Below are positions 1 through 51,610 of a stretch of DNA of 64,000 nt, one piece after another (the first letter of the stretch is position 1; each line of letters opens with the position of its first letter). Position numbers and translations under genes: made by a program. Origin of the DNA: an uncultured Candidatus Babeliaceae bacterium (GTDB lineage Bacteria; Babelota; Babeliae; Babelales; Babelaceae); NCBI GenBank assembly GCA_963704655.1, contig OY969927.1, positions 544,001-608,000 of the forward strand. Direction: 5' to 3'. Under the pieces are notes generated by a model. That model had not been told where the DNA came from and made no database searches. It saw only the letters and a program-made list of their open reading frames with translations.

Positions 1-859
1 AAAAATCACTAAAGGTGAATTGCTTGATTATTATGAACATATAGCGCCCTATTTACTGCCGTATATTCATGACCGAGCAATTACCATGCATCGATTTCCT
101 GAAGGGATAACGGGCGAGGCATTTTACCAAAAAAATGCAGGTGAATATTTTCCTGATTGGATAGAGACAAAAAAAGTTTCCAACATAAGTGCAGAAAGTA
201 AACGTGATGTTACGTCGTATGTTGTGTGCCAAAATGCTGCAACATTAGTGTATATTGCCAATCAAGGCTGCATCACACCACATATGTGGCTCAGCAAAAT
301 CGACAAACTTGATTACCCGGATGTTCTTATCTTTGATCTTGACCCTGCTGGTGAAAAAGTAACAAACTTTAAGATTATTGCCGATACTGCCTTTGCATTA
401 AAAGATATTTTAGAAAAATGTAATTTAACTGCTTTTGTTATGACCACCGGTTCTCGCGGCCTGCACGTGCGTGTGCCATTAAAACCAGATCATACGTTTA
501 ATGAAGTGCGTGCATTTGCAAAATCTGTAGCAGAAATTATCGTCGCCCAGGACCCAGAACATATAACGCTCGAATCACACAAAGAAAAAAGAGTTAACAA
601 ACTTTTAATTGATATCATGCGCAATAGCTTTGGTGCAACTGCCGTTGTGCCGTACGCTGCCCGCGCGCATGAACACGCGCCTGTTGCAACGCCACTTGAA
701 TGGGAAGAACTTGCAGATAGCAAACTTCGCTCAGATACATACACCATTAAAACTATTTTCAAGCGCCTTGATAAAATCGGCGATATATGGAAAACTATGC
801 ATAAAAGACAAGAATCTTTAAAAAAAGCTATTTCTTGTTTGAATAAGCTCGCACAATAA
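1..859 (+). CDS. LigD-type primase-polymerase (NHEJ polymerase domain), 5'-truncated by the window edge
   Basis: Motifs RFPEG..FYQKN, PD.LIFDLDP, TTGSRGLHV, VATPLEWEEL. The frame is open to the window edge (KITKGELLDYY), so the real start lies upstream. Confidence 0.9.
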   Translation, partial: KITKGELLDYYEHIAPYLLPYIHDRAITMHRFPEGITGEAFYQKNAGEYFPDWIETKKVSNISAESKRDVTSYVVCQNAATLVYIANQGCITPHMWLSKIDKLDYPDVLIFDLDPAGEKVTNFKIIADTAFALKDILEKCNLTAFVMTTGSRGLHVRVPLKPDHTFNEVRAFAKSVAEIIVAQDPEHITLESHKEKRVNKLLIDIMRNSFGATAVVPYAARAHEHAPVATPLEWEELADSKLRSDTYTIKTIFKRLDKIGDIWKTMHKRQESLKKAISCLNKLAQ

Positions 860-865
860 AAATCT

Positions 866-1441
866 ATGAATAAAAAGTTTCAAATAATCTACCTAAACGG
901 TCCGTCTAGTGCTGGAAAATCAACCCTTGCACATGCCTTACAAGAACAGCTTACTGAACCATATTTATTAATTGGTATCGATAATCTTATCGATATGATG
1001 CCAAAAAAATCTAACGATTGGTACCATGATATCAAAACTGAGGGTTTCAGCTTCCAACCAGCGATAAGTAATGACAACGAAAAAGTATATCGCATTAACG
1101 CGGGCCCTTATGGTCAACGCATTATTCAAGCGCTTAAAGATACGGTTCTAACGCTTGCTTCTAAAGGATTTAATATTATCGTTGACGATGTTGCCTTTGG
1201 TAAAGAACCAGCAGAGCTTTGGCGAAAAACACTCAGCCCGTTTAATGTCTTATGGGTAGGCATTACAGCACCGGTTGAAGTTCTTGAGCAACGCGAACTC
1301 GACCGCGGAGATAGAAAGCGTGGTTCAGCACGTTGGCAAGCAGAGCACGTGCATCAAGATGTTCAGTATGACATGATGTTTGATACCCATGCACAATCAA
1401 TTCAAGATATTGTTATGAAATTGATACAACGTATCAACTAG
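866..1441 (+). CDS. Chloramphenicol phosphotransferase-like P-loop kinase
   Basis: IIYLNGPSSAGKST P-loop, NIIVDDV and RE..RGDR..G.A motifs of the CPT family. Confidence 0.85.
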   Translation: MNKKFQIIYLNGPSSAGKSTLAHALQEQLTEPYLLIGIDNLIDMMPKKSNDWYHDIKTEGFSFQPAISNDNEKVYRINAGPYGQRIIQALKDTVLTLASKGFNIIVDDVAFGKEPAELWRKTLSPFNVLWVGITAPVEVLEQRELDRGDRKRGSARWQAEHVHQDVQYDMMFDTHAQSIQDIVMKLIQRIN

Positions 1442-2772
1442 ACAATCTTATTAATCGCCGGGGGGTTCCAGGTGCCGTTTAGTAAAGATTCTTGTGGCCA
1501 GTATATCCGCATTGTCACATTAAACTCACCCTCTGGCGCAGGCAGCCAATTTGATTCTTTATCTTTGCCCGGTGAGGTATGCTGTATATAGATATCAAGA
1601 GAACCATCGGCATTAAATTTCAGTTTATCGCGGTCGCCAAGTGCGTAACGGTCAAGTTTATTTTTAATTAAAAAACTTTCTGAATTATACATAGTAATCG
1701 ACCAAAATGCATTGGCAGGTGGCAGCTTGCCTTTGTCAAAGTGAATAACATACTTATTTTTACCCATAAGTGGTTTGCCATTACCATCAAAATAGGCAGT
1801 TGGATATATCGCATCTTCTGGCAAGTTTGCCCCGATGCCGATATGCGCAATTTGCGCACGCAAAAGATAGCGAGTGCCATACGTACCAATATCACGCATA
1901 ACTGACCAGCCGTTTACCCGTTGCCCAAGAGTTGCTATATCAAAAATCTCTTTCTGCGCTGGCTTAATTGCGTCATTAAGAGCGGGGCTTTTAATATCAA
2001 TTTTTTTGCCAGGAATAATGCCAACTTTTTTCAAATCAGCAACTATTGCAGAATCTTGTTTTGATGGCGGATTATCTTGTAACTCTCGCGCAAAGACCGT
2101 GTAAAAAGTTTCTGCGTCCATGCTATTAACTTCATCGACAGGTGCTTTGTGTTTGCCCCCTACTTCGCCAAGGCTTCGTAGGGCTGGCGCAATTTTTTTG
2201 CCCCATTGGGTTAATGGCGTAAGTTTATATCCCGCTTGAATTTTTCGCACAAAATCGTAATCTGTTTTTCCATTTGTTTGTGTGCGGGCTAAGATTAACA
2301 CCATATTTGTTGGGCACTTAATTATCTTCATGCCCTCAGGCAATGTGCCGGTATAATGTGGGCCAACAATAACAAAATCTTGCGCGGATGTCCCGGTTGT
2401 CCGTTTGCCAATACTTGCACATACATTTGTCCAGGCATCCATAAACTCCATTAAATAATAGCGCCCTTTGGTATCTGGAACAGATAAAATAAGTGGGCCA
2501 TGGGCAAGATCGAGCCATGCAAATGAATAAAGTGTATCGACATTGGGGCGCACAATATCTTTAAAGGTATAATCAGGAAACTTGCTAATATGCGTAAATT
2601 GATTAATCCGCTTGCCATTATGTGTCATGCTATTTTTAGTAACAGCCATGGTCACTAATGGGTAAGCATAAATATACGCGCGTTTGCCGATATCAAAAGC
2701 TTTTTTATAGCTTACACACTGTATAAAACTACTTGAAAAAAAAATGATCGCTATAAAAAAATAATGTAACAT
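1438..2772 (-). CDS. DUF1254/DUF1214 exported protein
   Basis: Signal peptide, AYIYAYPLV, RPNVDTLYS.AWLDL, FWSITMY, NWLPAP. Confidence 0.9.
   Translation of the reverse strand: MLHYFFIAIIFFSSSFIQCVSYKKAFDIGKRAYIYAYPLVTMAVTKNSMTHNGKRINQFTHISKFPDYTFKDIVRPNVDTLYSFAWLDLAHGPLILSVPDTKGRYYLMEFMDAWTNVCASIGKRTTGTSAQDFVIVGPHYTGTLPEGMKIIKCPTNMVLILARTQTNGKTDYDFVRKIQAGYKLTPLTQWGKKIAPALRSLGEVGGKHKAPVDEVNSMDAETFYTVFARELQDNPPSKQDSAIVADLKKVGIIPGKKIDIKSPALNDAIKPAQKEIFDIATLGQRVNGWSVMRDIGTYGTRYLLRAQIAHIGIGANLPEDAIYPTAYFDGNGKPLMGKNKYVIHFDKGKLPPANAFWSITMYNSESFLIKNKLDRYALGDRDKLKFNADGSLDIYIQHTSPGKDKESNWLPAPEGEFNVTMRIYWPQESLLNGTWNPPAINKIV
2158..2187. repeat. Palindromic repeat family B, short form, in frame inside the DUF1254 gene
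   Basis: cctacttcgccaaggcttcgtagggctgg matches the intergenic copy cctactacgctaaagcttcgtaggacagg (51206-51234) at 24/29 nt. Confidence 0.7.
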
Positions 2773-2848
2773 AGTAAGCTCTTTCTCGTACTATTATAAT
2801 GTTGATATAATTACCAAAAAGCTTAAAACATGCGTGATAGGAAATTCT

Positions 2849-4030
2849 ATGAAAAAGTTACTCACGACGTTCTTTTTTTATCTGATCGTTCTTTCTGCAA
2901 CAGAAAGTTCAAACTCTATTCCCGTGATACACCTAAAAACTCCCGATCTTTCTGATGCGCAAATCTTAGGCTATAACGTTGGCGTTCGCCCGTACCGTAA
3001 ATCTGGCGTCAGAATTGAAAGCGAACATCTTGATAATAAACTTATTATTCATAATTACGGCTATGGCGGATCCGGGTTAACCTTATGTTGGGGTGGCGCG
3101 CAGCAAGCAATAGAAATTTTACAAGAAGAACAATCAAAAAATCCTGCACTTGCAGCATGCAAAACTGTCGCAATACTCGGCGCGGGGGTTATTGGTCTTG
3201 CAACAGCGTATGATCTGATGGCGCAAGGCTACGCGGTGCATATATATGCACAAGATTTTCCGCCACACACCACTTCAAATGTTGCAGCAGGCATCTGGAG
3301 CCCGCCTGCGCTATCACCACACTATTCACAAAAAACTAAAGATAGCCTTACAAATATGCTCAGAGTTTCAGAAGAGCGATTTTTGAAAAGCCTAAATTAT
3401 GAAAATTTCGGCCGCATGGATTCGACAGGGCTCACCACGAGCGGCGAGACAAATACTCCAGAATTTGTGGGCATAAAATGCATCGAAGATTATTCGTTTG
3501 AACGGCCAGATAGTGCAACCGCGCTATCGGGAGCATTTGGATTTAGTCATGATTATTCTAGTGAACTTGTTGAATTCAATTTTGATAATGGTGTAAAAAA
3601 AGTTGGCACGCGCCATGCGCAACTTCATCTAGATGGGCCACTCTTTATGGAAAGCCTTTTTAATAAAGTAAAAGCGCAAGCACCCCTAACGAAAATGCAT
3701 TTTAATTCACGTGAAGATATCATGCAATTAGACGAATCTATAATTATAAATTGCACAAGCTTAGGATCACGCGAGCTTTTTAATGATCAGGAATTTAACC
3801 CGGTAAGGGGACAGCTGATATATTTAAAACAACAGCCTGGCATAGATTATATTGTTCATGAAGATGTTGAAGGCTCACATAACTTTTGGGTGACCCTTTA
3901 TCCACTTTCTGACCGACTTTTAATTGGCGGAGTATTTGAACATGGCAAAGAAGATCTTACGCGTAACCAAGAAGTAATCAATGTGTTACTTCACAATGCC
4001 CGCAACTGCTTTCAGCCACTTAATTCTTAA
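2849..4030 (+). CDS. FAD-dependent oxidoreductase, D-amino acid oxidase-like, with signal peptide
   Basis: GVRPYR, HNYGYGGSGLTLCWG, GAGVIGL, TTSNVAAG, PVRGQL. Likely start is the ATG of MKKLL (2849). Confidence 0.85.
   Translation: MKKLLTTFFFYLIVLSATESSNSIPVIHLKTPDLSDAQILGYNVGVRPYRKSGVRIESEHLDNKLIIHNYGYGGSGLTLCWGGAQQAIEILQEEQSKNPALAACKTVAILGAGVIGLATAYDLMAQGYAVHIYAQDFPPHTTSNVAAGIWSPPALSPHYSQKTKDSLTNMLRVSEERFLKSLNYENFGRMDSTGLTTSGETNTPEFVGIKCIEDYSFERPDSATALSGAFGFSHDYSSELVEFNFDNGVKKVGTRHAQLHLDGPLFMESLFNKVKAQAPLTKMHFNSREDIMQLDESIIINCTSLGSRELFNDQEFNPVRGQLIYLKQQPGIDYIVHEDVEGSHNFWVTLYPLSDRLLIGGVFEHGKEDLTRNQEVINVLLHNARNCFQPLNS
3410..3445. repeat. Palindromic repeat family A, in frame inside the DAO-like gene
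   Basis: ggccgcatggattcgacagggctcaccacgagcggc is close to the reverse complement of intergenic 48041-48076 (ggccgcatggttcgacttcgctcaccacgagcggcc). Confidence 0.85.
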
Positions 4031-5204
4031 GCTCAAATAATATCCCTCTGCCTATCTTTTTAATCGAGTTCCACCCTTGCGGCATCGTGCGATTTATCAT
4101 GATCACAATACCACTTTTTTTCCCAGGAATAACCCCGATATACGTATGAAACCCACGGGTAGTGCCCGTTTTTTCAAAAAGTTGACGGTGTGCAGTCGGC
4201 TTTTCTGAACGAGTAATTTTTTGTGCTGGAAAGCCCCATGAAATAGAGTTTTTGGAAACCAGATTATCCACATCTTTTACTTCCCACCCAAGACCATGAC
4301 GTATATGAGCAACTTGTATATGTTGCTTTTGAGTTAATTGCATCGCCTGCGAAATTGAAGCCGGCGTTCCGGGTAAACCGATAGCCGCTTTTAAAAATTT
4401 AAGCATATCAGCGCTTGATGCGCGCACAGCGGCAGCCCCGTGCAGCAACCCATCATCCCAATAACGTGCAGGTTCGCCTACTTTATTCAAGCAATCTGCA
4501 TAGTGGGGCATATAATATGCAGGGACATTAATAGAAATGGGTGACATATTTAAGGGAATTAAAATTCTTTGGATAAAAAGATCATTAATAGATTCATGTG
4601 TTTGTTCTTCTAACGCAACCCGTAATAATTCGATGCCAGGATTTGAATATTGAAACCATAACTCTTCTTTTTGCGCCGGTTTCCATGTGCGCATGTACGT
4701 ATAAAAACTATCTTTACTGGTAACCCATGCTGGCACGTCAAAGGGCATAGTTGAGGTATGGGTACAGAGTTTTTCTAAAGTTGTTTTGCGCAACCTTTTA
4801 TTACCAGCTAAAGCGGGAATATGCTTATTTATAGGATCTGATAGATACATGTGCCCGGCAAGAACCTCTTGTGCAACCAGCAGGCAGGTAAAAACTTTAC
4901 TTACTGAACCGATTTCAAATATGGTATTTTGCGTAATCGGCTTTTTCTTTTCAAGATCTGCGTAACCATATGATAATAAATAACTTTCATCATTATGATA
5001 CAAAGCAATTGCAACACCAGGGATATTGTTTTTCTTCATCCATGGCTTTACAATACTTTTGACATGGCCCTCTAAAGTGTATGGTTGATTTTCTTGAACA
5101 GTAACTTTTTTAGTTTTATTTTTAGGGGCTGACCTAGCGCCCTTTTTTATATTTTTTGCACTGAGTGTGAATATACAAAAAAGAACAAGATACAGTCTCT
5201 TCAT
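4020..5204 (-). CDS. Serine hydrolase, class C (AmpC-like) beta-lactamase family
   Basis: FEIGSVSK (SxxK), YSN and KTG motifs, plus a signal peptide. Confidence 0.85.
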   Translation of the reverse strand: MKRLYLVLFCIFTLSAKNIKKGARSAPKNKTKKVTVQENQPYTLEGHVKSIVKPWMKKNNIPGVAIALYHNDESYLLSYGYADLEKKKPITQNTIFEIGSVSKVFTCLLVAQEVLAGHMYLSDPINKHIPALAGNKRLRKTTLEKLCTHTSTMPFDVPAWVTSKDSFYTYMRTWKPAQKEELWFQYSNPGIELLRVALEEQTHESINDLFIQRILIPLNMSPISINVPAYYMPHYADCLNKVGEPARYWDDGLLHGAAAVRASSADMLKFLKAAIGLPGTPASISQAMQLTQKQHIQVAHIRHGLGWEVKDVDNLVSKNSISWGFPAQKITRSEKPTAHRQLFEKTGTTRGFHTYIGVIPGKKSGIVIMINRTMPQGWNSIKKIGRGILFELKN

Positions 5205-9701: not shown

Positions 9702-10383
9702 GAATAAACTCCTTTTGCCATAATTTTTTTGCTAACATTTCATAACGATCTGCAACCACCATTAAACTGTCTTCTAAACGACGTACTTTTGCAAGCAACG
9801 TGTAATACAAAACTACAACGGGTATCGCAACTAAAAGGCCCGCTAACGTGGTAATTAACGCTTCGGCAATACCGGGTGCTACCGTGACAATATCTGCAGA
9901 CTGCCGTTCACTGATACGGATAAATGAATGAATAAGGCCCCAAATGGTACCAAATAACCCCAGAAGTGTTGCTATTTCTGATGTCATAGAAAATATAGGA
10001 AGTGTCGCTGTTTCTTTTTTAACTAAATCATCATAGACCGTGTATAATTGTTCAGAAAATTGCTCTTTTTCTTGTTGGGATAATTCAGTTTTTGCAATCA
10101 AGCGTTCTTGTAATAACTCATATGCAGGCATTAAAAAAAGGCCTGAATAGGTATCTTTAAATGTCGAAACAGTAAGCTTGAGTTGATCAAGATTGTTTAC
10201 AGAAGCTAGTGCCGAACGTGTTTGAGAAAGTTGTTTTAGTTTTAAGCGTAACAAAAAATAACGTTGAAAAAAGATTGTCCAACAAATTACTGACAATCCA
10301 AATAAAATCAACAACACTGCTTTACTGATAGTGTCTGATTGAAAAATTAGTTGCGCTACTGCGTTGCCTGAAAATAAACTCAT
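9631..10383 (-). CDS. tolQ: TolQ/ExbB/MotA proton channel
   Basis: LLGLFGTIWG, VAPGIAEALITTLAGLLVAIP. Confidence 0.9.
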   Translation of the reverse strand: MSLFSGNAVAQLIFQSDTISKAVLLILFGLSVICWTIFFQRYFLLRLKLKQLSQTRSALASVNNLDQLKLTVSTFKDTYSGLFLMPAYELLQERLIAKTELSQQEKEQFSEQLYTVYDDLVKKETATLPIFSMTSEIATLLGLFGTIWGLIHSFIRISERQSADIVTVAPGIAEALITTLAGLLVAIPVVVLYYTLLAKVRRLEDSLMVVADRYEMLAKKLWQKEFIHAHTQTSSTEKPDIAAGKPYTSY

Positions 10384-10407
10384 AATTACCCCAATTTAAA
10401 CTTAGTT

Positions 10408-10494
10408 CTCGCTAACCCTTCGACACGCTCAGGATGAGCGAGTCTGGAATTCCACTGCCCGCCGCCGCTCGTGGTGAGCCAAGTCGAACCATGC
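10408..10494. repeat. Two family A repeats in inverted orientation, downstream of cca
   Basis: ctcgctaacccttcgacacgctcaggatgagcgag (10408-10442) and gccgctcgtggtgagccaagtcgaaccatgc (10464-10494). Confidence 0.9.
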
Positions 10495-10505
10495 AAGGCG
10501 CAAAT

Positions 10506-12005
10506 TTATTTTACCATACGTTGCACATAACGTAAAAGAGTTTCTTTTGTAGGATTTTGTTGTTCAATCTGATATTCATATACTTTATCCAAAGCGCGCC
10601 CTAACGCGGGCCCTTCAAAGCCCAAGGGCATAAGATCTGCACCGGTTAGAATCGGTTTTTCTGGCTCGTATAAGACACCGTATTCCTGAGCACGTGCAAT
10701 AAATTCATCGATCGCCGGCAACGGGCCAGACAGGGGTGAATATTTTTCTGGGTTTCTGCCAAGTTTGTCTGCATAGGCAAGTTGCGCAAGTATATATAAA
10801 TTTAAATCTGGCGCCAAAACTCTTGCTAATTTCTTATATGCTTTTGCCGTTGCGTTTTGAGATACGAAATGTCCCGGAGCCATATGATGGCGCACCAACA
10901 GCGCTACCTGATCAATTAATTTTTTGTTTCCCGTTAATCGTTTACATAATGCATGCGTAGGTTCAACTCCAGCAGCATCGTGCCCCAAGCTGCGCAGGCG
11001 ACCATCGATGATACGTGTTGTAGTTACTTTGCCAAGATCATGACATAGTGCCGAATAACATAATAACCGTCTATCTATATTACAATTCCCAATGGTTCGA
11101 CTTTGCTCACCATGAGCGGCTCTTATCTCCCCGCTTGTCTCGAGTGAAAATTCTGGAAGAATTTTAGTATCGAGAGAACAGCGGTATACTGCGCCGTCAA
11201 GTGCTTGCATACTATGCTCAAAAACATCGCCCTCTGGGTGCCAACTTTTTTCTTGTTCAATGCCAACCGTTGCTGCAAGTTCGGGTAAAACCTCTTGCAA
11301 GCGGCCGATATCTTTTAACCAATAAATTCCCAAAGATGGTCGTTTACTAAGCATGATTAATTTATCAAACTCAGCATGAATACGTTCAACTGAAATAGCA
11401 GAGATATCCATAGATTTACACACAGCATCAAGCTCATGATTTGGCCGCATTTCAAAGCGGGCAATAAACTGCATAACACGGTAAAAACGTAACGGATCCT
11501 GCACAAAAAAATGGGCATCGGGTGTTGCAAGAACTTTATTTTTTAAATCGGTATATCCACCAAATGGGTCGATTAATTCACCCGTTGCAAGATCTACCGC
11601 CATAGCGTTCATCGTCAAATCACGCCGCTTGAGCGCCTCAGTTATATTCATGGTTGGATCAACTTCAACAACCGGTTTTCTGCCAGAAGAATCACGGCGC
11701 GGAAGGGACCAATCAACGGGTAATGAACCAATGTTTACATTACTCACGCGAAAAACGCCAAAACTTTTCCCATCATAATGAACGGACCCGAATGTAGCCA
11801 ATATTTTTTCTAGCTGGTCACTGGTTATTCCATGAACTTCAATATCAAGATCATGTATCGGTAATTTTAAAAGAAAGTCACGCACAACACCACCAACAGC
11901 ATAAACCCGCGCATTATGTTGCAACAAACAATTGACAATATCGGTAATTATGGGCGAAACTCTTGTGGATACCGATGATAACAATAAGGATTTTTCTATG
12001 AACAT
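10506..12005 (-). CDS. cca: CCA tRNA nucleotidyltransferase with HD domain
   Basis: VGGVVRD, DLDIEV, RRDLTMNAMA, DPLRFYR, HPEGDVFEH, HDLGK. Exact start uncertain. Confidence 0.92.
   Translation of the reverse strand: MFIEKSLLLSSVSTRVSPIITDIVNCLLQHNARVYAVGGVVRDFLLKLPIHDLDIEVHGITSDQLEKILATFGSVHYDGKSFGVFRVSNVNIGSLPVDWSLPRRDSSGRKPVVEVDPTMNITEALKRRDLTMNAMAVDLATGELIDPFGGYTDLKNKVLATPDAHFFVQDPLRFYRVMQFIARFEMRPNHELDAVCKSMDISAISVERIHAEFDKLIMLSKRPSLGIYWLKDIGRLQEVLPELAATVGIEQEKSWHPEGDVFEHSMQALDGAVYRCSLDTKILPEFSLETSGEIRAAHGEQSRTIGNCNIDRRLLCYSALCHDLGKVTTTRIIDGRLRSLGHDAAGVEPTHALCKRLTGNKKLIDQVALLVRHHMAPGHFVSQNATAKAYKKLARVLAPDLNLYILAQLAYADKLGRNPEKYSPLSGPLPAIDEFIARAQEYGVLYEPEKPILTGADLMPLGFEGPALGRALDKVYEYQIEQQNPTKETLLRYVQRMVK
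11092..11184. repeat. Compound family A element, in frame inside the cca HD domain
   Basis: atggttcgactttgctcaccatgagcggc followed by an inverted long variant ccgcttgtctcgag-aaaattct/agaatttt-tcgag..agcgg. Confidence 0.8.
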
Positions 12006-12747
12006 ATATATAGCTATGGTTAGTATGGGGTGCTTTTTTTCTGCCTACGCATGGGAACTTACCGACATGCTGCCGGCGTCAATATTTCCACGCCATGAGT
12101 CTATTGTATCTCATGAATTTATTAAAGTAACAGAGCCTATCTCCTTTATGGTAACACAACAGCAGGGCATAGTTAAAGTAAAAGGGTGGGACAAAGAATC
12201 GGTCTCGATAGAGATCACCCAAAAAGGCACAAAAGAGGCCCTTGATAATACCGTTGTTACCGTAAATAAAGAAAAGCTACCCAAAGAAATTTCATGCACG
12301 GTAAGCCGCAAAGATGAAGGAAAATCATTAGCGCAGGTGACCATTAAAGCAAGCGTGCCCTTTAGTTGCGACCTGACGGTGCAATCACACAAAGGTCTTG
12401 TCAGAACAAAAAATCTGACACGCGCACAATCAATTTATGCTGATGATGGAAACGTTGAAGTGGTGCTCAATAAATTCTCAGTTGAAAGTTCACTTTTTAT
12501 TCATAACAAAAAAGGTTCTATCACCATTGAGGCACCCAAAAAAATTCAGGCACAACTTGCAGCATCAACATTACGCGGCACTATCACTTCTGAACTTTTT
12601 ATAACATTACAACCACACACCACGTTACTTGACAAAGACTATTGGCAACGGGTTAAAAAAGAAGTAAACGGATTTCTTGGCGACGGCGGCGCACCGATTA
12701 CCATCGAAGCTGAATATGGCGATATTAAGTTAGTCGCCAAAAAATAG
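11998..12747 (+). CDS. DUF4097/putative adhesin-like beta-strand repeat protein
   Basis: Signal peptide, G.V.VKGWDKESV.IE, ST..G.I, and C-terminal G.GGAPI.IE...GDI. Likely ATG at 11998. Confidence 0.7.
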   Translation: MNIYIAMVSMGCFFSAYAWELTDMLPASIFPRHESIVSHEFIKVTEPISFMVTQQQGIVKVKGWDKESVSIEITQKGTKEALDNTVVTVNKEKLPKEISCTVSRKDEGKSLAQVTIKASVPFSCDLTVQSHKGLVRTKNLTRAQSIYADDGNVEVVLNKFSVESSLFIHNKKGSITIEAPKKIQAQLAASTLRGTITSELFITLQPHTTLLDKDYWQRVKKEVNGFLGDGGAPITIEAEYGDIKLVAKK

Positions 12748-16341: not shown

Positions 16342-16869
16342 TTAAAGATTTTCTAACAATATTAAAGATTTCCCGAATAATGTAATTCTATTTTTAATAC
16401 CATCTAATTCAGCCTCAGGAACAGGCGGAAATTCACTATATATTTGATCGAGTAAACTTGCATAGCAACTCGTATCCAAATCGTCATCACAGTTATTAAG
16501 AGCTTGTTGTAAAGCAACTTTAAGTACAGAACCTGTAGTAACTGAAAATTTCGGTACCACATCCCCATTTCCATCAGCAACATGTTCGCAAAGAGCACTG
16601 TATGCATTAGCTTTGTGCATGCAAGCGCTCTTATGCGGCACATTCAAAGCCAAAAAATAGCGCGCTAAAATTACTTCATTAAAAGCTTTATCACGAGTAA
16701 GTTTCTTATCCTTTGTCACATACTTTATATATACAGGGACAACCGTTGCATAATCAATCTCAAATAAGTTTTCTGCATAATCAATCTCAAATAAGTTTTC
16801 TGTTGAATGGCTCGGATTAACAAAGAGTAAACCCGCTAGAAACACAATAAATACTCTACTATTATTCAT
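16342..16869 (-). CDS. Small secreted hypothetical protein, tandem paralog 3 of 3
   Basis: Signal peptide; DYATVVPVY..NEVILARY..LKVAL. Confidence 0.75.
   Translation of the reverse strand: MNNSRVFIVFLAGLLFVNPSHSTENLFEIDYAENLFEIDYATVVPVYIKYVTKDKKLTRDKAFNEVILARYFLALNVPHKSACMHKANAYSALCEHVADGNGDVVPKFSVTTGSVLKVALQQALNNCDDDLDTSCYASLLDQIYSEFPPVPEAELDGIKNRITLFGKSLILLENL
16747..16802. repeat. Perfect 27-bp in-frame tandem duplication (ENLFEIDYA x2)
   Basis: tgcataatcaatctcaaataagttttc occurs twice back to back. Confidence 0.95.
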
Positions 16870-30072: not shown

Positions 30073-30210
30073 GAATCTCGTATAAAGTAAAAAAGAGGAG
30101 CAGATACAAAAACTTCCGCTAACCGTGCTGCTTCTTTTCAGACCTGACACATTATTTAACTGTTTTTTATCTACTCCTCAAGTTTTTTATGCCCAATAAG
30201 TGGCACTAGT

Positions 30211-30243
30211 TCGCTAACCCTTCGACAGGCTCAGGATGAGCGG
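30211..30243. repeat. Family A repeat
   Basis: tcgctaacccttcgacaggctcaggatgagcgg, near-identical to 10409-10440. Confidence 0.9.
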
Positions 30244-30282
30244 ATTGAGACTGGCCCGCCAGGCATTTCTTTCAGGAACGAT

Positions 30283-30335
30283 GGCCTGCCATCTGAAGCT
30301 TGCCAAGCCAGTAGGCGTGGATAAGCGAAAGATGG
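30283..30335. repeat. Family B repeat, long form, overlapping the tRNA-Ser CCA end
   Basis: ggcctgccatctgaagcttgccaagccagtaggcgtggataagcgaaagatgg. Confidence 0.9.
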
Positions 30336-30424
30336 TGGAGAGAGAGGGATTCGAACCCTCGATGCCCTTTTCAGAGCATACATGATTTCCAATCATGCTC
30401 TTTCGGCCTCTCAGACATCTCTCC
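30333..30424 (-). tRNA. tRNA-Ser(GGA)
   Basis: Reverse complement GGAGAGATGTCTGAGAGGCCGAAAGAG-CATGA-TT-GGA-AA-TCATG, long variable arm, GGTTCGAATCCC, TCTCTCCACCA. Confidence 0.96.
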
Positions 30425-30427
30425 GTA

Positions 30428-30452
30428 GTTCGACTTCGCTCACTATGAGTGG
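30428..30452. repeat. Family A repeat filling the rpsB to tRNA-Ser spacer
   Basis: gttcgacttcgctcactatgagtgg. Confidence 0.8.
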
Positions 30453-30453
30453 T

Positions 30454-31305
30454 CTAAGCTTTACGCTGAGCTGGACGAGACTGTAAACGTTTTTGCGGAC
30501 GTGCAGCAGGCGCTGTACGTTTTGCTTTTTGACGTTCGGCTTCAGTTCCATCTTCACTTAATACCGTCTGAATAATACGATCAAGTGAATTGTCTTCAAT
30601 AATTTCTTCTTGTGGTTTAGCAGTAGCAGCTACTTGCTGACCACGCTTAACTGCTTCTGCAAGATAATTCAAAATAACTTCAAGTGCTCTTGGCGCATCA
30701 TCATTTGTTGGAATAACAAAATCAATTCCTGATGGATCAGAATTTGTATCAACTAATGCAACAATAGGCACACCAGCAGATTTTGCTTCTTTAATAGCAA
30801 CATGTTCTTTATTTACATCCACTACAACAAGTGCACCAACTGGCCAACGCAACTCACGAATACCGCCAACGTTTTTTTCAAGACGCTCTTTCATTTTATT
30901 GAAAAGATTAAGCTCTTTTTTAATGTAGTGTGATGAATCAGATTTTGCCAAAATATCTTCAAAATGGAGCATTTTGGTAACAGATTTTTTAACTTGTGGA
31001 TAATTGGTAAGTGTACCACCAATCCAGCGATGTGTTACTGAAGGAGACTTAACGGTTTCAAGAACTTTAGGCAATACCGCTTGAGCTGATTTTTTTGTAC
31101 CGACCCATAAAACTGATTTGCCTTGAGATGCTAAAGATTCAAGAAACTGAGCAGCTCTTTCAAGTTGAAAAGCTGTCTTTGAAACGTCAATGAGATGAAT
31201 TCCGTTTTTATGACCCCAAATATAAGGGCTCATTTTTGGATTCCAGCGCCATGTTTGGTGTCCAAATTGGACGCCATTTTTAATAAGATGTTTTAAATCG
31301 ATCAT
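30454..31305 (-). CDS. rpsB: 30S ribosomal protein S2
   Basis: GVQFGHQTWRWNPKM, RWIGGTLTN, VDTNSDP, NDDA. Confidence 0.98.
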   Translation of the reverse strand: MIDLKHLIKNGVQFGHQTWRWNPKMSPYIWGHKNGIHLIDVSKTAFQLERAAQFLESLASQGKSVLWVGTKKSAQAVLPKVLETVKSPSVTHRWIGGTLTNYPQVKKSVTKMLHFEDILAKSDSSHYIKKELNLFNKMKERLEKNVGGIRELRWPVGALVVVDVNKEHVAIKEAKSAGVPIVALVDTNSDPSGIDFVIPTNDDAPRALEVILNYLAEAVKRGQQVAATAKPQEEIIEDNSLDRIIQTVLSEDGTEAERQKAKRTAPAARPQKRLQSRPAQRKA

Positions 31306-31460: not shown

Positions 31461-32960
31461 CTACTGATTATGAGCCGCTCCATCCTGAGAGCTTTCATCA
31501 GAGCCGATCACTTCGCCACTGGCTACGGCTTTCTCATAGCGACGTCCTAAAAAGTGCGCTACTACCATCCAACAGCCTATGATCAAGGTAAAGAAGATAC
31601 CATTAACTGCATTTATTGATATAAATACAGTCCCAAGTTTCCCAGAGATTCCAGAAAACGTTGCACCAACGCTTTTAGCGAACTTAGTACCAAATGAATC
31701 GATCCACGATTTTGATTTAAACTTAATAAGCTTAGTCGTTGGAATATATAAGCTTTCACGCAATGGGGAGGCAAATGCATAATTAAGGGCTTTAAGTAAA
31801 ATATACACAAGACTTATACTTGTCGCAGCCGCTTGATTTGTTATCTCTGACGCGGTGAAGTAATATACCATTAAAACGGCAGTGATAATAGGCACCAGAA
31901 GCAAGGAGCGTCTTTCACCTAAATATTCAATAAGCGCTCTGGTTCCTAAAAGGGTAATAAAAAAACCAACTAGATGCACCCAGAAATCATCGCCTAGCAA
32001 CGATGCTGTTTTTTGAGAAATAGTAAATGATGCCGCGCCAGCCACTACTACACGCTCAATGTTAACATAGACATTAACCACTTCCCAGAAGGAAACAACA
32101 CCCAATATTCCCATAACATAGGGATATTTTACCATAAGGGTAAGTCCTTCAAGGTTCTTTTTCAGGGCATCCCACCAACTAGCTGCAGGCTGTTTCTCTT
32201 CTTTTGCATGCTGCTTTTCAAACTTATACGCCGCTTCATAGCCATGCATTGTTTTAGAAGGAACAAAATAAATCATTAATGCAATCAAAACAGGAACAAC
32301 AAGAAGCAACCCTGAGGTCATATAAAAAAGAATTTGATGGTTAAATGCATCAGAAAGTAATTGTTGTCCAGTTACTGGATCAATTCGTCTTAACCACCAG
32401 CAGGCAAATGTCGTTGCAACAACACCACCAAATTTTGAAGCCGCCACCATAATAGGATAATTACTTTTTGCGGCACTGGGCGAAGTTATAGAGTGGCTGA
32501 AGGACCAAAAAAGACCGACCACAAAGGGATTAAAGCCATCCATAAAAAAGTATAAGAGCCAACCAAAAATCCTATCTACGCTTTGCTCAGTATTAGGCAA
32601 TCCGATAGTTGGATGGGTAATAAAATAACCGATAACCAAGCCACCAACCCCATAAATTACACTATAAAGTGTCATAAGCTGCGCTCGACGCATAACATCT
32701 ACAAGCTTAGAAAAAAGCAAAATTGCAGGAATCAGAAGTATCATTGACCATAACTTAGCAACTGCAAGCGACTCTTTGCCGCCTACAATACTCATAAAAA
32801 GAGAGTCTTTAAGCGTACGAACCACCGTATAAGTACCAATAATGCAAAAGAATGAAAGAGAAAGAAGTAAGACTTTTACACGCTCATCTTTTTTAATATA
32901 CACCAACTTATTATAAAGTGCGTGTAATGAAAACTTAGAAAATATGCCCTTAAAACCCAT
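31461..32960 (-). CDS. NTT/TLC-family nucleotide (ATP/ADP) translocase, copy 2
   Basis: Multiple TM segments; Y.VVRTLKDSLF, LFWSF....AKSNY, LYIPT....KFKSKSWID.FG.KFAK. Confidence 0.88.
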   Translation of the reverse strand: MGFKGIFSKFSLHALYNKLVYIKKDERVKVLLLSLSFFCIIGTYTVVRTLKDSLFMSIVGGKESLAVAKLWSMILLIPAILLFSKLVDVMRRAQLMTLYSVIYGVGGLVIGYFITHPTIGLPNTEQSVDRIFGWLLYFFMDGFNPFVVGLFWSFSHSITSPSAAKSNYPIMVAASKFGGVVATTFACWWLRRIDPVTGQQLLSDAFNHQILFYMTSGLLLVVPVLIALMIYFVPSKTMHGYEAAYKFEKQHAKEEKQPAASWWDALKKNLEGLTLMVKYPYVMGILGVVSFWEVVNVYVNIERVVVAGAASFTISQKTASLLGDDFWVHLVGFFITLLGTRALIEYLGERRSLLLVPIITAVLMVYYFTASEITNQAAATSISLVYILLKALNYAFASPLRESLYIPTTKLIKFKSKSWIDSFGTKFAKSVGATFSGISGKLGTVFISINAVNGIFFTLIIGCWMVVAHFLGRRYEKAVASGEVIGSDESSQDGAAHNQ

Positions 32961-32982
32961 AATATCCCTTACCCTTAGAAAG

Positions 32983-33022
32983 ATGGGTTTTCTTATGAAA
33001 CTTTTATCACAAGAAAACCCAT
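32983..33022 (-). terminator. Hairpin between the two NTT genes (terminator or attenuator)
   Basis: 12-bp inverted repeat atgggttttctt/aagaaaacccat. Confidence 0.55.
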
Positions 33023-33058
33023 TTTATTTACAACATAGTGCTTAACACAAGATGATCA

Positions 33059-34633
33059 TTAACAAACAACGCGTTTTTCGTCGATTGCACTTTTGTATGT
33101 TTTACCAAGATAAAGCGCTACAAAGAACCACATCGCAACCAATCCATAACCAAGAACTGATGCCATTAAAATATAATGTGATTTTCCAACTACATCACCA
33201 AAGACTTTTTGTAATGGTTTGAGCGACATGTTAAATATCGATCCAACTTCTTTAGATCCGCGTGAACCGAATACTTCGATCCATGCTTGAGATTTAAAGC
33301 GAACATCATGAGTTGTTGGGATATAAAGCTGTTTCATAGCAGGACCATTAAGCGCATAGTTAATCGCTTTAGAACCAACCATAAGCCAGAACAAGAATGT
33401 TAAGCTATCAAAGGTAATAAATCCAGTAATTGCACCAGCTACAATAATAGGCATCATAACTAAAGCAACGCCTACGCCAAGTAAACGAGTGATATTACTT
33501 ACACCAAGCAATAAGCAGATCAGTGAAATAATATTAACATATGAACCATATTGACCAAGATACGCATCAAGATCACGGCCTACATAGTGAGTACTTGCAA
33601 GAACTTTGAAATTGAAATCAAAGATAGTAACAATAATCTCATAGCTAGCGATAGCTGCAAAGATGCCCATCAAATACCTATGGCTTAATAATAATTTTAA
33701 CCCTTCAAGGAATCCTGGCTCTTGCTCTTTTTCAGCAGCAGCTTCGTTTTTACCATGAAATGAAGCAAGTAATGCTTTAGGCGTAACTTTTAAGAAGTTT
33801 TTGATTAAAACACCTACTAAACCAATGCTAATTGCGCATACAAAGAAAGAAATTGCACTGGTTGTTTTTAAATATGCTGGAACAAATTGCGCAAATGACA
33901 CTAAAGATGCACCAAAAGGCTTTAAATAATTAGGAATGTTATCAATACTTTCAAACTTTTGTAAAGTCTGTGCTATTGGCGTAACAAACATTGGCCCGAT
34001 GATACCACCAAATTGGCCAATTGCGGTAACAAGATAGAACCCTTTTTTTGCAGAGTTTGAATCTGTTGTATCAGAAGCAAAAGCCCAAAACAATGCCACA
34101 ACCAATGAGCCATAGCTTTCAACAAAAATATAGATCACATAACCCAAAACTTTTGTTAAGTAATATTCAGCGCCTGTATATGAAGCAATAGTTGCTGCAT
34201 CAGCCTGAAATTTACATAATAACAGACCAAATAATAATGCACCACCGGCATAAATAGTTGAAAGAATATAGAACATCTTCTCACGAGAGTATCTGTCCAT
34301 AAGCTTTGTGTAGAACATAACTAATGGGAAAAGCAAAAACAATGAAGCTGTTTTAGCCCAAGGAATATCATGCTTGCTCACAAGATTTATAAAAACTGAA
34401 TCTTTTAAAACGCGAAGTGTCCAATAAGAGCCAATAATAAGAGCAAAAATTAGACCCATACGGAGGAATTTCTTAAACTCTTCTTTTTCAAACTCGCCAA
34501 AAATTGGTCTGAAAATATACTGTAACGCCGGAAGTATCATACAAAAGTCCTTTTTGTAGGTAAAAAATAAAAAAAGTTTCATATTTATATTACTACGCGA
34601 TTTTTCTTTTGTAAAACTAAAAAACCCGCTCAT
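33059..34633 (-). CDS. NTT/TLC-family nucleotide (ATP/ADP) translocase, copy 1
   Basis: EEFKKFL, YWTLRVLKDSVF, LFWAFA....AKKGFY, LYIPT..VRFKSQAWIE.FG.R.SK. Real start probably near 34540 (MILPAL). Confidence 0.9.
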   Translation of the reverse strand: MSGFFSFTKEKSRSNINMKLFLFFTYKKDFCMILPALQYIFRPIFGEFEKEEFKKFLRMGLIFALIIGSYWTLRVLKDSVFINLVSKHDIPWAKTASLFLLFPLVMFYTKLMDRYSREKMFYILSTIYAGGALLFGLLLCKFQADAATIASYTGAEYYLTKVLGYVIYIFVESYGSLVVALFWAFASDTTDSNSAKKGFYLVTAIGQFGGIIGPMFVTPIAQTLQKFESIDNIPNYLKPFGASLVSFAQFVPAYLKTTSAISFFVCAISIGLVGVLIKNFLKVTPKALLASFHGKNEAAAEKEQEPGFLEGLKLLLSHRYLMGIFAAIASYEIIVTIFDFNFKVLASTHYVGRDLDAYLGQYGSYVNIISLICLLLGVSNITRLLGVGVALVMMPIIVAGAITGFITFDSLTFLFWLMVGSKAINYALNGPAMKQLYIPTTHDVRFKSQAWIEVFGSRGSKEVGSIFNMSLKPLQKVFGDVVGKSHYILMASVLGYGLVAMWFFVALYLGKTYKSAIDEKRVVC

Positions 34634-42935: not shown

Positions 42936-44042
42936 ATGAAAAGCCATACACGTGTATTATTTATTTTTCTCTTGTGCGTAGCGCTGCTGACCTGCATCGG
43001 CTTTATCTTTATTTATTCCTCAAGTTCTGCATATGCATTAGAACGCTATCAAGACGGTCTTTTCTATGCGAAAAAACAGTTTCTTGGACTTATTTTAGGT
43101 ATAATCGGTGGCCTAATATTATCGATTATCCCCTTAAACTTTCTGAAAAATGCGGCGCCCTATCTGTTTCTGTGTGCACTGTGCGCAACAGCTGCAACAT
43201 TGTTGCCCTATGTCGGCGTATCGATCCATGGCTCACACCGGTGGCTTTCTCTTGCAGGGTTTTCTTTTCAGCCGAGTGAATTTTTAAAAATATTTTTTAT
43301 CTTGTATTGTGCGTACTTTTTAGAAAAGAAACAGTTTTCATTACATGCCATTAAACATTACATGCAACTACTTATTGTCATAAGTATCACAGCGGGGATA
43401 CTGTTATTGCAGCCAGATTTTGGACAGATGGTGACGTTGAGCTTAACAGCAGTTTTATTATTTTTCTTAGCCCAAGTACCGATCATATATTTAGCTATTA
43501 CCGGCATTCCTGTTTTACCAATTCTGGGACTACTTGTTTATCTTAAACCCTATCGTTTCCATAGAATTTTAATTTATCAAAACCCATGGAAAGATCCACA
43601 GGGTGCAGGTTTTCAAATTATACAATCTCTGATTGCTATCGGCTCTGGCGGCTGGACCGGCGTTGGAATTGCACAATCAAAACAGAAATTCTTTTATTTA
43701 CCGATGCACCATACAGATTTTATTTTTTCAATTATTGCCGAAGAGACAGGATTTTTAGGTGTTACATTTTTGATTAGTATTTATTGTATCTTTTTATTTA
43801 CCGGCTTTAAACTTGCATCGTATATGAAGGAACAGTTTTCATTTTTATGCATAGCAGGTATCGTTACCCTGATTACATTACAAACTATTATTAATATCGG
43901 CGTTGCATGCGCATTGCTGCCTACCAAAGGAATCGGGCTGCCCTTTATTAGCTATGGTGCATCATCACTACTTGCACATTTATGCATGATCGGCGTTATT
44001 TGCAATTGCGTAAAAAGCAACCGTTCCCTTCGTATTCATTAA
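42936..44042 (+). CDS. ftsW: FtsW (SEDS peptidoglycan polymerase)
   Basis: RWL..FQPSEF.K, QPDFG, GFQ.IQS.IAIGSGG, HTDFIF, LPFISYG; follows murD. Confidence 0.93.
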   Translation: MKSHTRVLFIFLLCVALLTCIGFIFIYSSSSAYALERYQDGLFYAKKQFLGLILGIIGGLILSIIPLNFLKNAAPYLFLCALCATAATLLPYVGVSIHGSHRWLSLAGFSFQPSEFLKIFFILYCAYFLEKKQFSLHAIKHYMQLLIVISITAGILLLQPDFGQMVTLSLTAVLLFFLAQVPIIYLAITGIPVLPILGLLVYLKPYRFHRILIYQNPWKDPQGAGFQIIQSLIAIGSGGWTGVGIAQSKQKFFYLPMHHTDFIFSIIAEETGFLGVTFLISIYCIFLFTGFKLASYMKEQFSFLCIAGIVTLITLQTIINIGVACALLPTKGIGLPFISYGASSLLAHLCMIGVICNCVKSNRSLRIH

Positions 44043-45175
44043 TCAACTTCACTAAATGGTTCATATTGCGCAGAAGGCTCAACTGCTTTAGCGGAAATTA
44101 ATGGTTTTCTATGCTCAACGGGAGAATATCTTCTTAGTGGGCGCGTTAATCTTAATGTTTCAGTAGGCTTAGGGTTTTCTGCCTGCCGGCTTGCACGCTC
44201 AAAAAAGAAAAGATACGACTGAAACCTCTGCCGAAATGCGCCTTGGGGCTCGCCTTGAAGAATGTTGCCTAAGCGCCCTTCATTAATTGGCTCAATATGC
44301 GAATCATTACACAAGTACCACTGATTACCATAACGGCTTACTGCAATATAATGGCCCCCCTTTAAAGAAGATCCAGAATGCAAAACAGCCCCAATTAATG
44401 AATACCAATACTTAGTAGACGAGTCATCTTTTTTAGACAGATAAAATTGATGGGTTAATGACCATATGGGAATCATATGCTTTTCAAGCATCTCATTAAC
44501 TCGAGGTGCTGTTACCACTAAAATCTCTGAAGCCTGGTTAAAATTATTCTCTTCGCTCATAATGAACGAGCCCATTTTTCCAGCAGGGTTTGTGCCTTCA
44601 ACCGTAGCTTTTTTTGATACAGAGAAAAAACTTTTTATTAACGTTTCTATTGCCGTTCCTTGTTCACGTTTTTCTACAGGCACATAATCAAAAGGTATAT
44701 TTAAATGAAATAATCCATACTCTCTATTATCTACTTCAACCCTATCAAAAACTTTTTTATAGGTATACCCTATTTTAAATAAATTTGTTAATGCTGGCTT
44801 TGGATAAAGATGGTCAATAAATTTTATAAAAAATTCTTCTGCATCCTGTTGTCGGCCAACTTCATTAAATATATTTGTATTTACAAGATTCACTAATTCT
44901 GCTGGAGCAATAGAACTTTCAGAAGTAGAACTATACTGCTTAATCAAACTCTGCAATGCTTGCGTAAAATTTTTATCAATCGAATTATCCCCTTCACCTG
45001 GCTCATAAGAAAGAACTGTATCGCGAAAAGATTTAGTCGCAAACAAACATTGCAACGTAGAGTTCAAATAACAGGTATTTCCAAGATTATTAAAACCCTT
45101 AGGCATATTGAGCAGTTCAGATGAATAACTTACCTGAACTGTGCATAATAACATAAAAAATATAATTTTTTTCAT
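44039..45175 (-). CDS. Ubiquitin-specific protease (USP/UBP, peptidase C19) with signal peptide
   Basis: Cys box GFNNLGNTCYLNSTLQCL, QQDAEEF, His box YSLIGAVLHSG....GGHYIA, WYLCNDS. Confidence 0.92.
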   Translation of the reverse strand: MKKIIFFMLLCTVQVSYSSELLNMPKGFNNLGNTCYLNSTLQCLFATKSFRDTVLSYEPGEGDNSIDKNFTQALQSLIKQYSSTSESSIAPAELVNLVNTNIFNEVGRQQDAEEFFIKFIDHLYPKPALTNLFKIGYTYKKVFDRVEVDNREYGLFHLNIPFDYVPVEKREQGTAIETLIKSFFSVSKKATVEGTNPAGKMGSFIMSEENNFNQASEILVVTAPRVNEMLEKHMIPIWSLTHQFYLSKKDDSSTKYWYSLIGAVLHSGSSLKGGHYIAVSRYGNQWYLCNDSHIEPINEGRLGNILQGEPQGAFRQRFQSYLFFFERASRQAENPKPTETLRLTRPLRRYSPVEHRKPLISAKAVEPSAQYEPFSEVD

Positions 45176-47929: not shown

Positions 47930-48017
47930 ACAAGTTCTTTCTTTAGTTAGAATTATTGCATCAACTAGTATACCAAAACTTAACCAAAAAGAACGTGCTT
48001 AAAATTAATTCCCAACA

Positions 48018-48076
48018 CTTCGACTTCGCTCAGTGTGAGCGGCCGCTCGTGGTGAGCGAAGTCGAACCATGCGGCC
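48018..48076. repeat. Inverted pair of family A repeats
   Basis: cttcgacttcgctcagtgtgagcgg joined directly to ccgctcgtggtgagcgaagtcgaaccatgcggcc. Confidence 0.9.
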
Positions 48077-51535: not shown

Positions 51536-51563
51536 AAAATACCTAACTCTTGCCAGTCCCCAA

Positions 51564-51592
51564 CCCTTCGACTACGCTCAGGGCGAGCGGCC
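51564..51592. repeat. Family A repeat between rplQ and the NifU-like gene
   Basis: cccttcgactacgctcagggcgagcggcc. Confidence 0.9.
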
Positions 51593-51610
51593 GGTGGTGG
51601 AGTAAGATTA

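Follow-up and report, generated by a model that had tools for sequence, protein, structure and literature searches.

A Candidate Rickettsia-Type In-Frame Hairpin Repeat in the cca Gene of a Candidatus Babeliaceae Bacterium

Introduction

Palindromic elements that lie in frame within protein-coding genes are best known from Rickettsia (Rickettsia palindromic elements, RPEs; Ogata et al. 2000, 2002, as cited in later work), and the passages devoted to them in PMC10969869 and PMC3733652 give RPE-1 as a unit of ~150 bp that encodes a conserved peptide. Here, we analyze a 64,000-nt stretch of DNA from an uncultured Candidatus Babeliaceae bacterium of the phylum Dependentiae (assembly GCA_963704655.1, contig OY969927.1, positions 544,001 to 608,000; this whole stretch is referred to as the window), in which the cca gene, encoding a tRNA nucleotidyltransferase, carries an insert of about 93 nt. 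We consider it quite likely that a hairpin repeat, similar in kind to RPEs and to repetitive extragenic palindromic (REP) sequences, sits in frame in cca and is read through as a flexible loop of ~30 residues.

The sections of Di Nocera et al. 2013 that deal with intragenic repeats describe GTAG- and CGTC-tagged REPs inside known genes of several species, many of which act in replication or repair, and report that recB carries different REPs at nearly the same position in two Xanthomonas species (PMC3733652). As in the present case, palindromic DNA is read within protein-coding genes of Coxiella burnetii, in which QMITEs lie in open reading frames (ORFs; PMC5896051), and within mitochondrial genes of Nematomorpha (PMC6649704). 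In the relevant parts of these two reports, however, the QMITEs measure 150-400 bp, carry direct repeats and for the most part affect hypothetical ORFs or the ends of genes, and the Nematomorpha palindromes are long perfect inverted repeats in organelle genes. A literature search, judged by titles and abstracts, found no report of such repeats in Dependentiae, an absence that is no proof of novelty; the genome papers PMC4776705, PMC6561590 and PMC4378268 do not mention palindromes, and their mentions of repeats or transposition are not about short DNA repeats.

Results

Candidate In-Frame Insertion in the HD Domain of Cca

The cca ORF occupies positions 10506-12005 on the minus strand and encodes a protein of 499 aa with head, RNA-binding and C-terminal HD domains, as represented by Pfam matches to PF01743 (PolyA_pol head, 4.5e-20), PF12627 (RNA-binding) and PF01966 (C-terminal HD). 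The best sequence match in the PDB was 3wfo, the CC-adding enzyme of Aquifex aeolicus (1.1e-21, residues 28-499 aligned), and a Foldseek search with the AlphaFold model of Cca retrieved 3wfp, 3wfs and 3wfr, as well as Thermotoga 5hc9 and 3h38, with template modelling (TM) scores of 0.57-0.71. The domain make-up, the HD residues and the fold fit a class II tRNA nucleotidyltransferase with an HD domain; the best PDB match is a CC-adding enzyme, and "CCA-adding" is the name that some sources give to the relatives. Named relatives of the protein belong to Candidatus Babeliaceae and Dependentiae.

To place the insert, we compared the window protein with 120 homologs (121 sequences in total; those singled out below are numbered P0001 onward). 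Cca keeps every position that is invariant in this set, including H264, the first metal-binding His of the HD domain (..VFEH..; codon at 11214-11216, minus strand), and H322-D323 of the HD motif (codons at 11037-11042, minus strand), all of them invariant in 121/121, along with K326, H342 and H374. Between ..VFEH(264).. and ..CH(322)D(323)LGK the protein reads SMQALDGAVYRCSLDTKILPEFSLETSGEIRAAHGEQSRTIGNCNIDRRLLCYSALC, and the translated ORF reads ...HPEGDVFEHSMQALDGAVYRCSLDTKILPEFSLETSGEIRAAHGEQSRTIGNCNIDRRLLCYSALCHDLGK... across the insert region. An earlier note on this DNA had placed an insert at 11092-11184 (minus strand), which runs from base 3 of the Y274 codon to base 2 of the I305 codon. 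This segment of 93 nt, equal to 31 codons, is a multiple of three without a stop in the reading frame, and its excision leaves ...DGAVYGNCNIDRRLL, a loop of normal length.

The spacer, defined as the residues between H264 and H322, comprised 19-31 aa in 115 of the 121 sequences (mode 28, n = 88), as compared with 57 aa in the window; spacers of 40-61 aa were found in six proteins, namely the window protein, P0001, P0002, P0004, P0027 and P0090. P0003, 88.9% identical to the window protein once the loop is excluded, has the sequence DSAVTRQVPEEDKKLL with a clean gap of 30 aa, and shows SAVTRQVPEEDKK where the window has GAVYR...NIDRR. A scan of genome contigs yielded 50 related loci, the window's own genome not being among them, of which L005 (79%) and L002 (74%) were the closest. 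The distance from WHPEG to HDLGK was 40-43 residues in 5/5 close loci (L001-L005) versus 72 in the window, and the DNA alignment with these five loci showed one uninterrupted gap at the insert. The clean gap of ~30 aa that had been predicted for an ortholog alignment was therefore found in P0003, in L001-L005 and in the spacer lengths of the set as a whole, and an equally long segment in repeat-free orthologs, which would speak against an insertion, was not the rule among the 121 sequences. The accompanying statement that the spacer is normally much shorter holds for the Dependentiae orthologs, but not for the distant Aquifex 3wfo, in which a native segment at the insert position is about as long. 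These comparisons support, at the level of sequence, the view that a repeat absent from the orthologs has been inserted in frame into this conserved gene.

A Dispersed Hairpin Repeat within the Insert

The insert contains a monomer of a repeat family, termed family A, at 11089-11121 (plus strand), with the core TTCGAC-N3-GCTCA-N4-GAGCGG, a small GCTCA/TGAGC hairpin and a coding strand that encodes RAAHGEQSRTIG. Its plus-strand segment 11092-11120 (ATGGTTCGACTTTGCTCACCATGAGCGGC) matched inverted copies at 10464-10492 and 48042-48070 in 27/29 nt (93%), and blastn of the cca monomer against the other copies gave an E value of 1.75e-05 (900-kb database). The pattern TTCGACNNNGCTCACCANGAGCGG, with up to 3 mismatches, occurred 8 times in the 64-kb window versus 0.00 times expected from 100 shuffles. 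An nhmmer profile built from 8 copies detected 10 monomers; for eight of them E was below 1e-6, and the other two, which belong to a sister subfamily, had E values of 5e-4 and 2.5e-3. The cca monomer had the best score of the 10 (E 8.7e-10), being itself among the 8 copies that built the profile.

Seven of the 10 monomers are intergenic, although ORFs of at least 90 aa cover ~91% of the window, and several lie directly past the 3' ends of genes (cca, rplQ, rpsB and ORF 48090-48737). Just past the cca stop codon, two opposed monomers form an intergenic doublet at 10409-10494, which is also found at the orthologous place in L005 (11420-11490; Cca identity 79%). An intergenic head-to-head dimer at 48012-48072 forms a long hairpin (DNA fold -20.1 kcal/mol, z = -4.81). 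Further intergenic monomers, all on the plus strand, are located at 30217-30243 (of the GCTCAGGATGAGCG subfamily), between the signal recognition particle (SRP) RNA gene (30089-30182) and tRNA-Ser; at 30422-30454, between rpsB and tRNA-Ser; and at 51560-51593, directly downstream of rplQ. As a separate observation, the in-gene monomer segment 11092-11120 recurs in inverted orientation 599 nt away, at 10464-10492, so that the pair brackets the 3' third of cca; such a pair could in principle allow local copying or inversion.

The monomer profile matched L005 only, 1 of the 50 related loci. The idea that similar repeat-encoded peptides are widespread across phyla found no support in a literature search and, with this single matching locus, stays no more than a lead. 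At L010 (3410-3724; Cca identity 42%), we noticed a run of repeated units downstream of cca whose translation gives CHPEFISGS-like peptides similar to the P0002 insert, which suggests that other hairpin-repeat families exist in the phylum.

Three of the 10 monomers lie in frame within conserved genes (cca, dnaX and a gene for a DAO-family FAD-dependent oxidoreductase), in three different frame/orientation combinations; the peptides encoded, RAAHGEQSRTIG, PPFDYAQGERP and GRMDSTGLTTSG, respectively, show no conserved sequence or constant frame. In dnaX (ORF 27780-29366, minus strand; Pfam DNA_pol3_delta2 at 5.7e-36), the monomer lies at 28309-28340 (minus strand) in a variable linker. The PFDYAQGER of the window falls in a clean gap of P0122, the closest relative (83%), and P0123 carries a different, longer insert at this site. 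In the DAO-like gene (ORF 2834-4030, plus strand), the monomer lies at 3415-3446 (plus strand), and P0242 (89%) has a clean 17-aa gap at the insert. The insert of the window is present in P0243 (74%), where it is seen as the monomer at L005 15120-15151, and missing from the 8 other aligned homologs. That the more distant P0243 has this insert and the closer P0242 does not implies either precise loss or independent gain.

Boundaries, Second Half and Folding of the cca Insert

A 9-nt spacer separates the cca monomer from a 54-nt imperfect palindrome at 11131-11184, which encodes (Y)RCSLDTKILPEFSLETSG and has the outer pairs CCGCT/AGCGG and TCTCGA/TCGAGA. Within it, AAAATTCT (11147-11154), GGA and AGAATTTT (11158-11165) make up an inner hairpin at 11147-11165, seen in both sequence and fold. 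Folded as DNA, the region 11085-11190 reached -17.5 kcal/mol (z = -3.19), and 0/200 shuffles were as good; as coding-strand RNA, the same region gave z = -1.13, with 23/200 shuffles as good.

The insert had been described earlier as a compound palindrome consisting of a family A copy and an inverted long variant with an internal hairpin. The monomer at 11089-11121 and the AAAATTCT/AGAATTTT hairpin bear out this description, but that the second half is a variant of family A is not supported. The nhmmer monomer profile gave no detection in the 54-nt palindrome, blastn-short matches of 11121-11190 did not exceed 14 nt, either in the rest of the window or across the 836 kb of the 50 related loci, and the alignment of the cca insert with other monomer-bearing sites showed no homology beyond the monomer; the second half was accordingly rejected as a family-A monomer. 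We also discarded a composite element of monomer, AT-rich hairpin and second arm, as the aligned DAO-like site, the cca-tolQ doublet and the L005 doublet share the monomer only. The AAATTCTGGA that was shared in the alignment proved to be part of the host reading frame of the DAO-like gene, where it encodes PEFVG. A terminator or promoter within the gene was likewise dismissed, since sites found in a consensus scan were no more frequent than in shuffles.

On its left side, the cca monomer has an extension of 9 nt, AATTCCCAA, in common with the copy at 48005-48018. Because of this, the element may begin near 11084, and its boundaries are uncertain by ~8 nt.

Structural Setting of the Insert

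The AlphaFold2 model of Cca, made with the 121-sequence alignment, had a mean predicted local distance difference test (pLDDT) score of 91.7 and a predicted TM score (pTM) of 0.90. The only run of three or more residues below 50 was 282-306, which lies inside the insert, between the helices 261-278 and 312-321. In this model, the insert is an excursion between the first two HD helices that leaves the rest of the fold undisturbed, and the loop is probably flexible and solvent-exposed. The structure prediction that had been proposed as a check thus placed the insert in a loop between two confident HD helices, a position predicted to be compatible with the fold. Judging from the aligned sequences, the HD-loop site is a permissive one, as the native long segment of 3wfo also marks.

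P0001, encoded on another contig, carries an identical 43-residue region and is 89.7% identical to the window protein elsewhere (409/456), from which we conclude that the insert did not arise through misassembly of the window and that a second lineage has retained it in frame. On the grounds of the intact frame, the retention of all invariant HD residues and this identical insert in P0001, the insert would appear to be tolerated. Both tRNA genes of the window, tRNA-Ala (20220-20295) and tRNA-Ser (30333-30424), encode their own 3' CCA, and for this reason Cca may serve mainly in repair rather than in maturation, a role that would relax the constraint on the protein. Of the proposal that about 30 aa of repeat-derived peptide are tolerated in a loop of a core tRNA-maturation enzyme, the location in a loop and the tolerance itself are consistent with these data; only ~10 codons, however, are demonstrably repeat-derived, and repair may be the main task of the enzyme.

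Different Inserts in the Same Loop

Four other Cca proteins (P0002, P0004, P0027 and P0090) carry different inserts in the same HD loop. Octamers from the inserts of P0002, P0027 and P0090, and from an insert in a head-domain loop of P0043, matched six-frame translations of the window monomers in 6-7 of 8 residues, a level reached by 0-6 of 200 shuffles. The inserts of P0004, P0112, P0086, P0103, P0115 and P0095 could not be linked to the window monomers; they matched in 4-5 of 8 residues, which was equalled by 66-199 of 200 shuffles. We also rejected the P0002 insert as an inverted or frame-shifted form of the window insert, as the other two coding-strand frames and the three opposite frames hit stops on inspection by eye.

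In a FastTree phylogeny of the 121 sequences from which the loop columns had been removed (supports are local values, not bootstraps), P0001 and P0002 were sisters (support 100) joined by the window protein (support 96), and P0027 and P0090 grouped far from this clade. The long-loop state requires at least three changes on this tree, and the starred branches force two. P0001 and P0002 are 96.5% identical outside the loop (415/430), and their inserts are unrelated; the window protein and P0001 have the same insert, yet differ from each other by about a tenth of their residues elsewhere. Apart from the HD loop, a 5-residue insertion (SNVNI or SNIDI) in the Cca head domain, at residues ~87-91 (~11733-11747), was observed in the window, P0001 and P0002 only, and marks these three as a clade independently of the HD-loop insert.

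Genomic Surroundings

The window includes two adjacent TLC ATP/ADP translocase genes (31464-34633) and a eukaryote-type UCH ubiquitin hydrolase gene (44042-45175), which fit an intracellular parasite of eukaryotes in terms of energy parasitism and host manipulation. The gene cluster at 2-5204 is unusual for a reduced parasite genome; it encodes a LigD primase-polymerase domain (cut by the window edge), a chloramphenicol-phosphotransferase-like kinase, a DUF1254/DUF1214 protein, the DAO-like oxidoreductase and a beta-lactamase-family protein. We also observed a second repeat family of ~50 nt directly downstream of tRNA-Ala (20169-20219) and tRNA-Ser (30282-30332), the two copies being 80% alike. 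It reads TGGCCTGCCATCTGAAGCTTGCC...GATAAGCGAAAGA with a GC-rich hairpin, and a third, partial copy is located at 20338-20369, upstream of tRNA-Ala; this repeat may represent another REP family, or else an element common to the two tRNA genes for 3' processing or termination. A perfect 27-nt tandem duplication (2 copies, 100%) at 16747-16800 adds 9 aa in frame to the ORF 16345-16869 (minus strand), which has no Pfam match.

Discussion

The explanation that we favour is that a GC-rich REP-like hairpin repeat, native to this Babeliaceae-like Dependentiae genome, would have landed in or been copied into a permissive loop of cca. The monomer and the adjoining 54-nt palindrome would together account for the ~93 nt between the metal-binding His and the HD dyad, and the mRNA would most likely be read straight through to give an enzyme with ~30 extra residues whose catalytic residues and fold are intact. 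Most copies of the family are intergenic, usually just downstream of genes, and the in-gene copies may be survivors of purifying selection, with insertions persisting only in permissive loops or linkers. The origin by insertion (through transposition or template copying), the translation and the near-neutrality of the insert are what we infer from the data above.

Several observations weigh against this explanation. Only 29-33 of the ~93 nt, or ~10 codons, are tied to the repeat family, and no further copy of the 54-nt palindrome was found in the window or in the 836 kb of loci, leaving a single composite element unsupported. No direct repeat or target-site duplication is visible on the flanks of the 93-nt segment, the ends of which are not inverted copies of each other as terminal inverted repeats would be, and no transposase domain, including REP-associated tyrosine transposase (RAYT; IS200/IS605-type), was found among the 70 ORFs of the window. 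The closest empty-site DNA compared comes from a locus with 79% protein identity, which limits the calls on boundaries and mode of insertion. The low pLDDT of the loop results in part from sparse coverage, as only 2 of the 121 sequences fill the insert columns. Furthermore, the insert is better conserved between the window protein and P0001 (43/43) than the rest of the protein (89.7%), a degree of conservation more readily expected of a segment that is under constraint or was recently transferred than of neutral junk.

Could the extra loop be an ordinary lineage-specific expansion that resembles the repeat by chance? The length of the inter-helix segment does vary in the wider family, as the natively long Aquifex homolog illustrates, but the 27/29-nt identity to two copies (blastn E 1.75e-05), the nhmmer E value of about 1e-8, a pattern expected 0.00 times and the single-block gap in the orthologs leave this explanation with practically no credence. 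We regard it as very improbable, too, that the mature protein lacks the insert because of an intron, an intein or a translational bypass, or that cca is a decaying pseudogene. The insert starts with Cys and ends with Asn followed by Cys, superficially like intein junctions, and its palindrome could form a stem-loop as at bypass sites. An intein fold of the HINT type, however, comprises 130 or more residues. With 31 residues the insert is far below any intein fold and has no such Pfam domain, and no Rfam family, introns included, was detected at 10300-12100 with E values up to 1; an intein or self-splicing intron was ruled out by these three results. The RNA fold, with a z of only -1.13, does not favour bypass, and the open frame, the retention of all residues invariant in the 121 sequences and the in-frame insert in a second lineage argue against both removal and decay.

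The conservation shared with P0001 is open to two readings, descent with constraint combined with replacement in the P0002 lineage, or recent short-patch exchange between strains. As a rival to near-neutrality, the insert could be under selection, either because the peptide gives Cca a new surface for a partner, localisation or regulation, or because the palindrome acts in cis as DNA or RNA, in mRNA stability, transcription pausing or recombination. The identity between the window protein and P0001 extends over the insert and its variable flanks, and no difference occurs in residues 266-317, a run of 52 aa that covers the insert and is the longest identical one. In simulations, such a run had a P of 0.005 at that site; somewhere in the protein, however, one that long arose in 19% of the simulations (P = 0.19). 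The DNA palindrome folds better than 200/200 shuffles and the intergenic doublet after cca has been kept in L005, at a Cca identity of 79%, whereas the RNA fold is unremarkable. The presence of a different insert in P0002 and of none in P0003 implies that no particular sequence is required, and the three frame/orientation combinations of the three in-frame monomers imply that there is no common peptide. On balance, selection for the insert seems to us improbable. In the case of exchange, the identical insert in lineages ~10% apart would reflect the recent lateral spread of a short patch, insert and flanks together, by homologous recombination between strains. The loop would then be a place where alleles with repeats are traded or replaced as well as inherited. 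This would explain why the window protein and P0001 have one insert when P0002, the sister of P0001, has another, and why the variable host flanks GAVYR and NCNIDRR are identical only in the window protein and P0001; the DAO-like insert, common to the window and the more distant P0243 and absent from the closer P0242, is distributed in a similar manner. Nevertheless, vertical descent of the first insert followed by replacement in the P0002 lineage calls for just as many events, the metagenome contigs that encode P0001 and P0002 may be chimeric assemblies, and the FastTree supports are local. We therefore consider lateral spread unlikely, though worth keeping in mind.

Beyond the landing of a repeat in cca, we tentatively raise the possibility, to which we give less than even weight, that still-active hairpin repeats recurrently land in the HD loop of Dependentiae Cca or are exchanged there; over short timescales, in-frame repeats of this phylum would then be gained, exchanged for one another, lost precisely or transferred from strain to strain. 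This idea of rapid turnover is based on the three or more origins on the tree, the unrelated inserts in a pair of proteins that are 96.5% identical, the identical insert in a pair that is 89.7% identical and the distribution of the DAO-like insert.

Among the described systems, as far as the parts of the reports cited here go, the Rickettsia RPEs are similar in that they are palindromic repeats dispersed in the small genome of an obligate intracellular bacterium. A considerable fraction of the copies lies in frame in unrelated housekeeping genes, at places compatible with the fold, and orthologs lack the insert. In contrast to RPE-1, the repeated unit in the window is ~30-40 nt and is read in three frame/orientation combinations, with no constant frame or conserved peptide. 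The phylum is Dependentiae, not Alphaproteobacteria, and the likeness to RPEs drawn here is one of description. Tagged REPs, in the portions of PMC3733652 that describe them, share with our repeat the stem-loop units of 20-40 nt, the location mostly downstream of genes, the head-to-head dimers and the occurrence of different repeats at about the same site of orthologs, as in dnaX and the Cca loop. However, the defining terminal tetranucleotide is missing here (GTAG was found in 1/10 monomers, CGTC or GACG in 0/10) and the monomer stem is only ~5 bp; on its sequence, the present repeat is not a member of the GTAG/CGTC-tagged REP superfamilies. As in the RAYT-mobilised REPINs, in the part of PMC8049555 concerned with them, two inverted monomers form a longer hairpin (48012-48072 and 10409-10494) and copies persist at syntenic sites in a related genome, but the window ORFs include no RAYT, and the cca copy is a single monomer beside an unrelated palindrome rather than a monomer pair.

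Taken together, these results support the view that the Cca insert is an in-frame repeat of the RPE-like kind known from Rickettsia, now in the phylum Dependentiae. Dependentiae are an unrelated phylum of obligate intracellular protist parasites, and the pattern lends support to the view that selfish hairpin DNA can spread into permissive protein loops where populations are small and selection is relaxed. The in-frame copies mark natural insertion-tolerant sites in Cca, DnaX and an oxidoreductase, and they are a caution to annotators: unusual GC-rich peptides in proteins of Dependentiae derive from repeats. Since distant strains share one insert and near-identical strains differ in theirs, a comparison of their DNA would give a tractable measure of repeat turnover. 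If the suggestion of rapid turnover is true, these protist parasites would harbour a second, independent "Rickettsia-like" system of selfish DNA in proteins.

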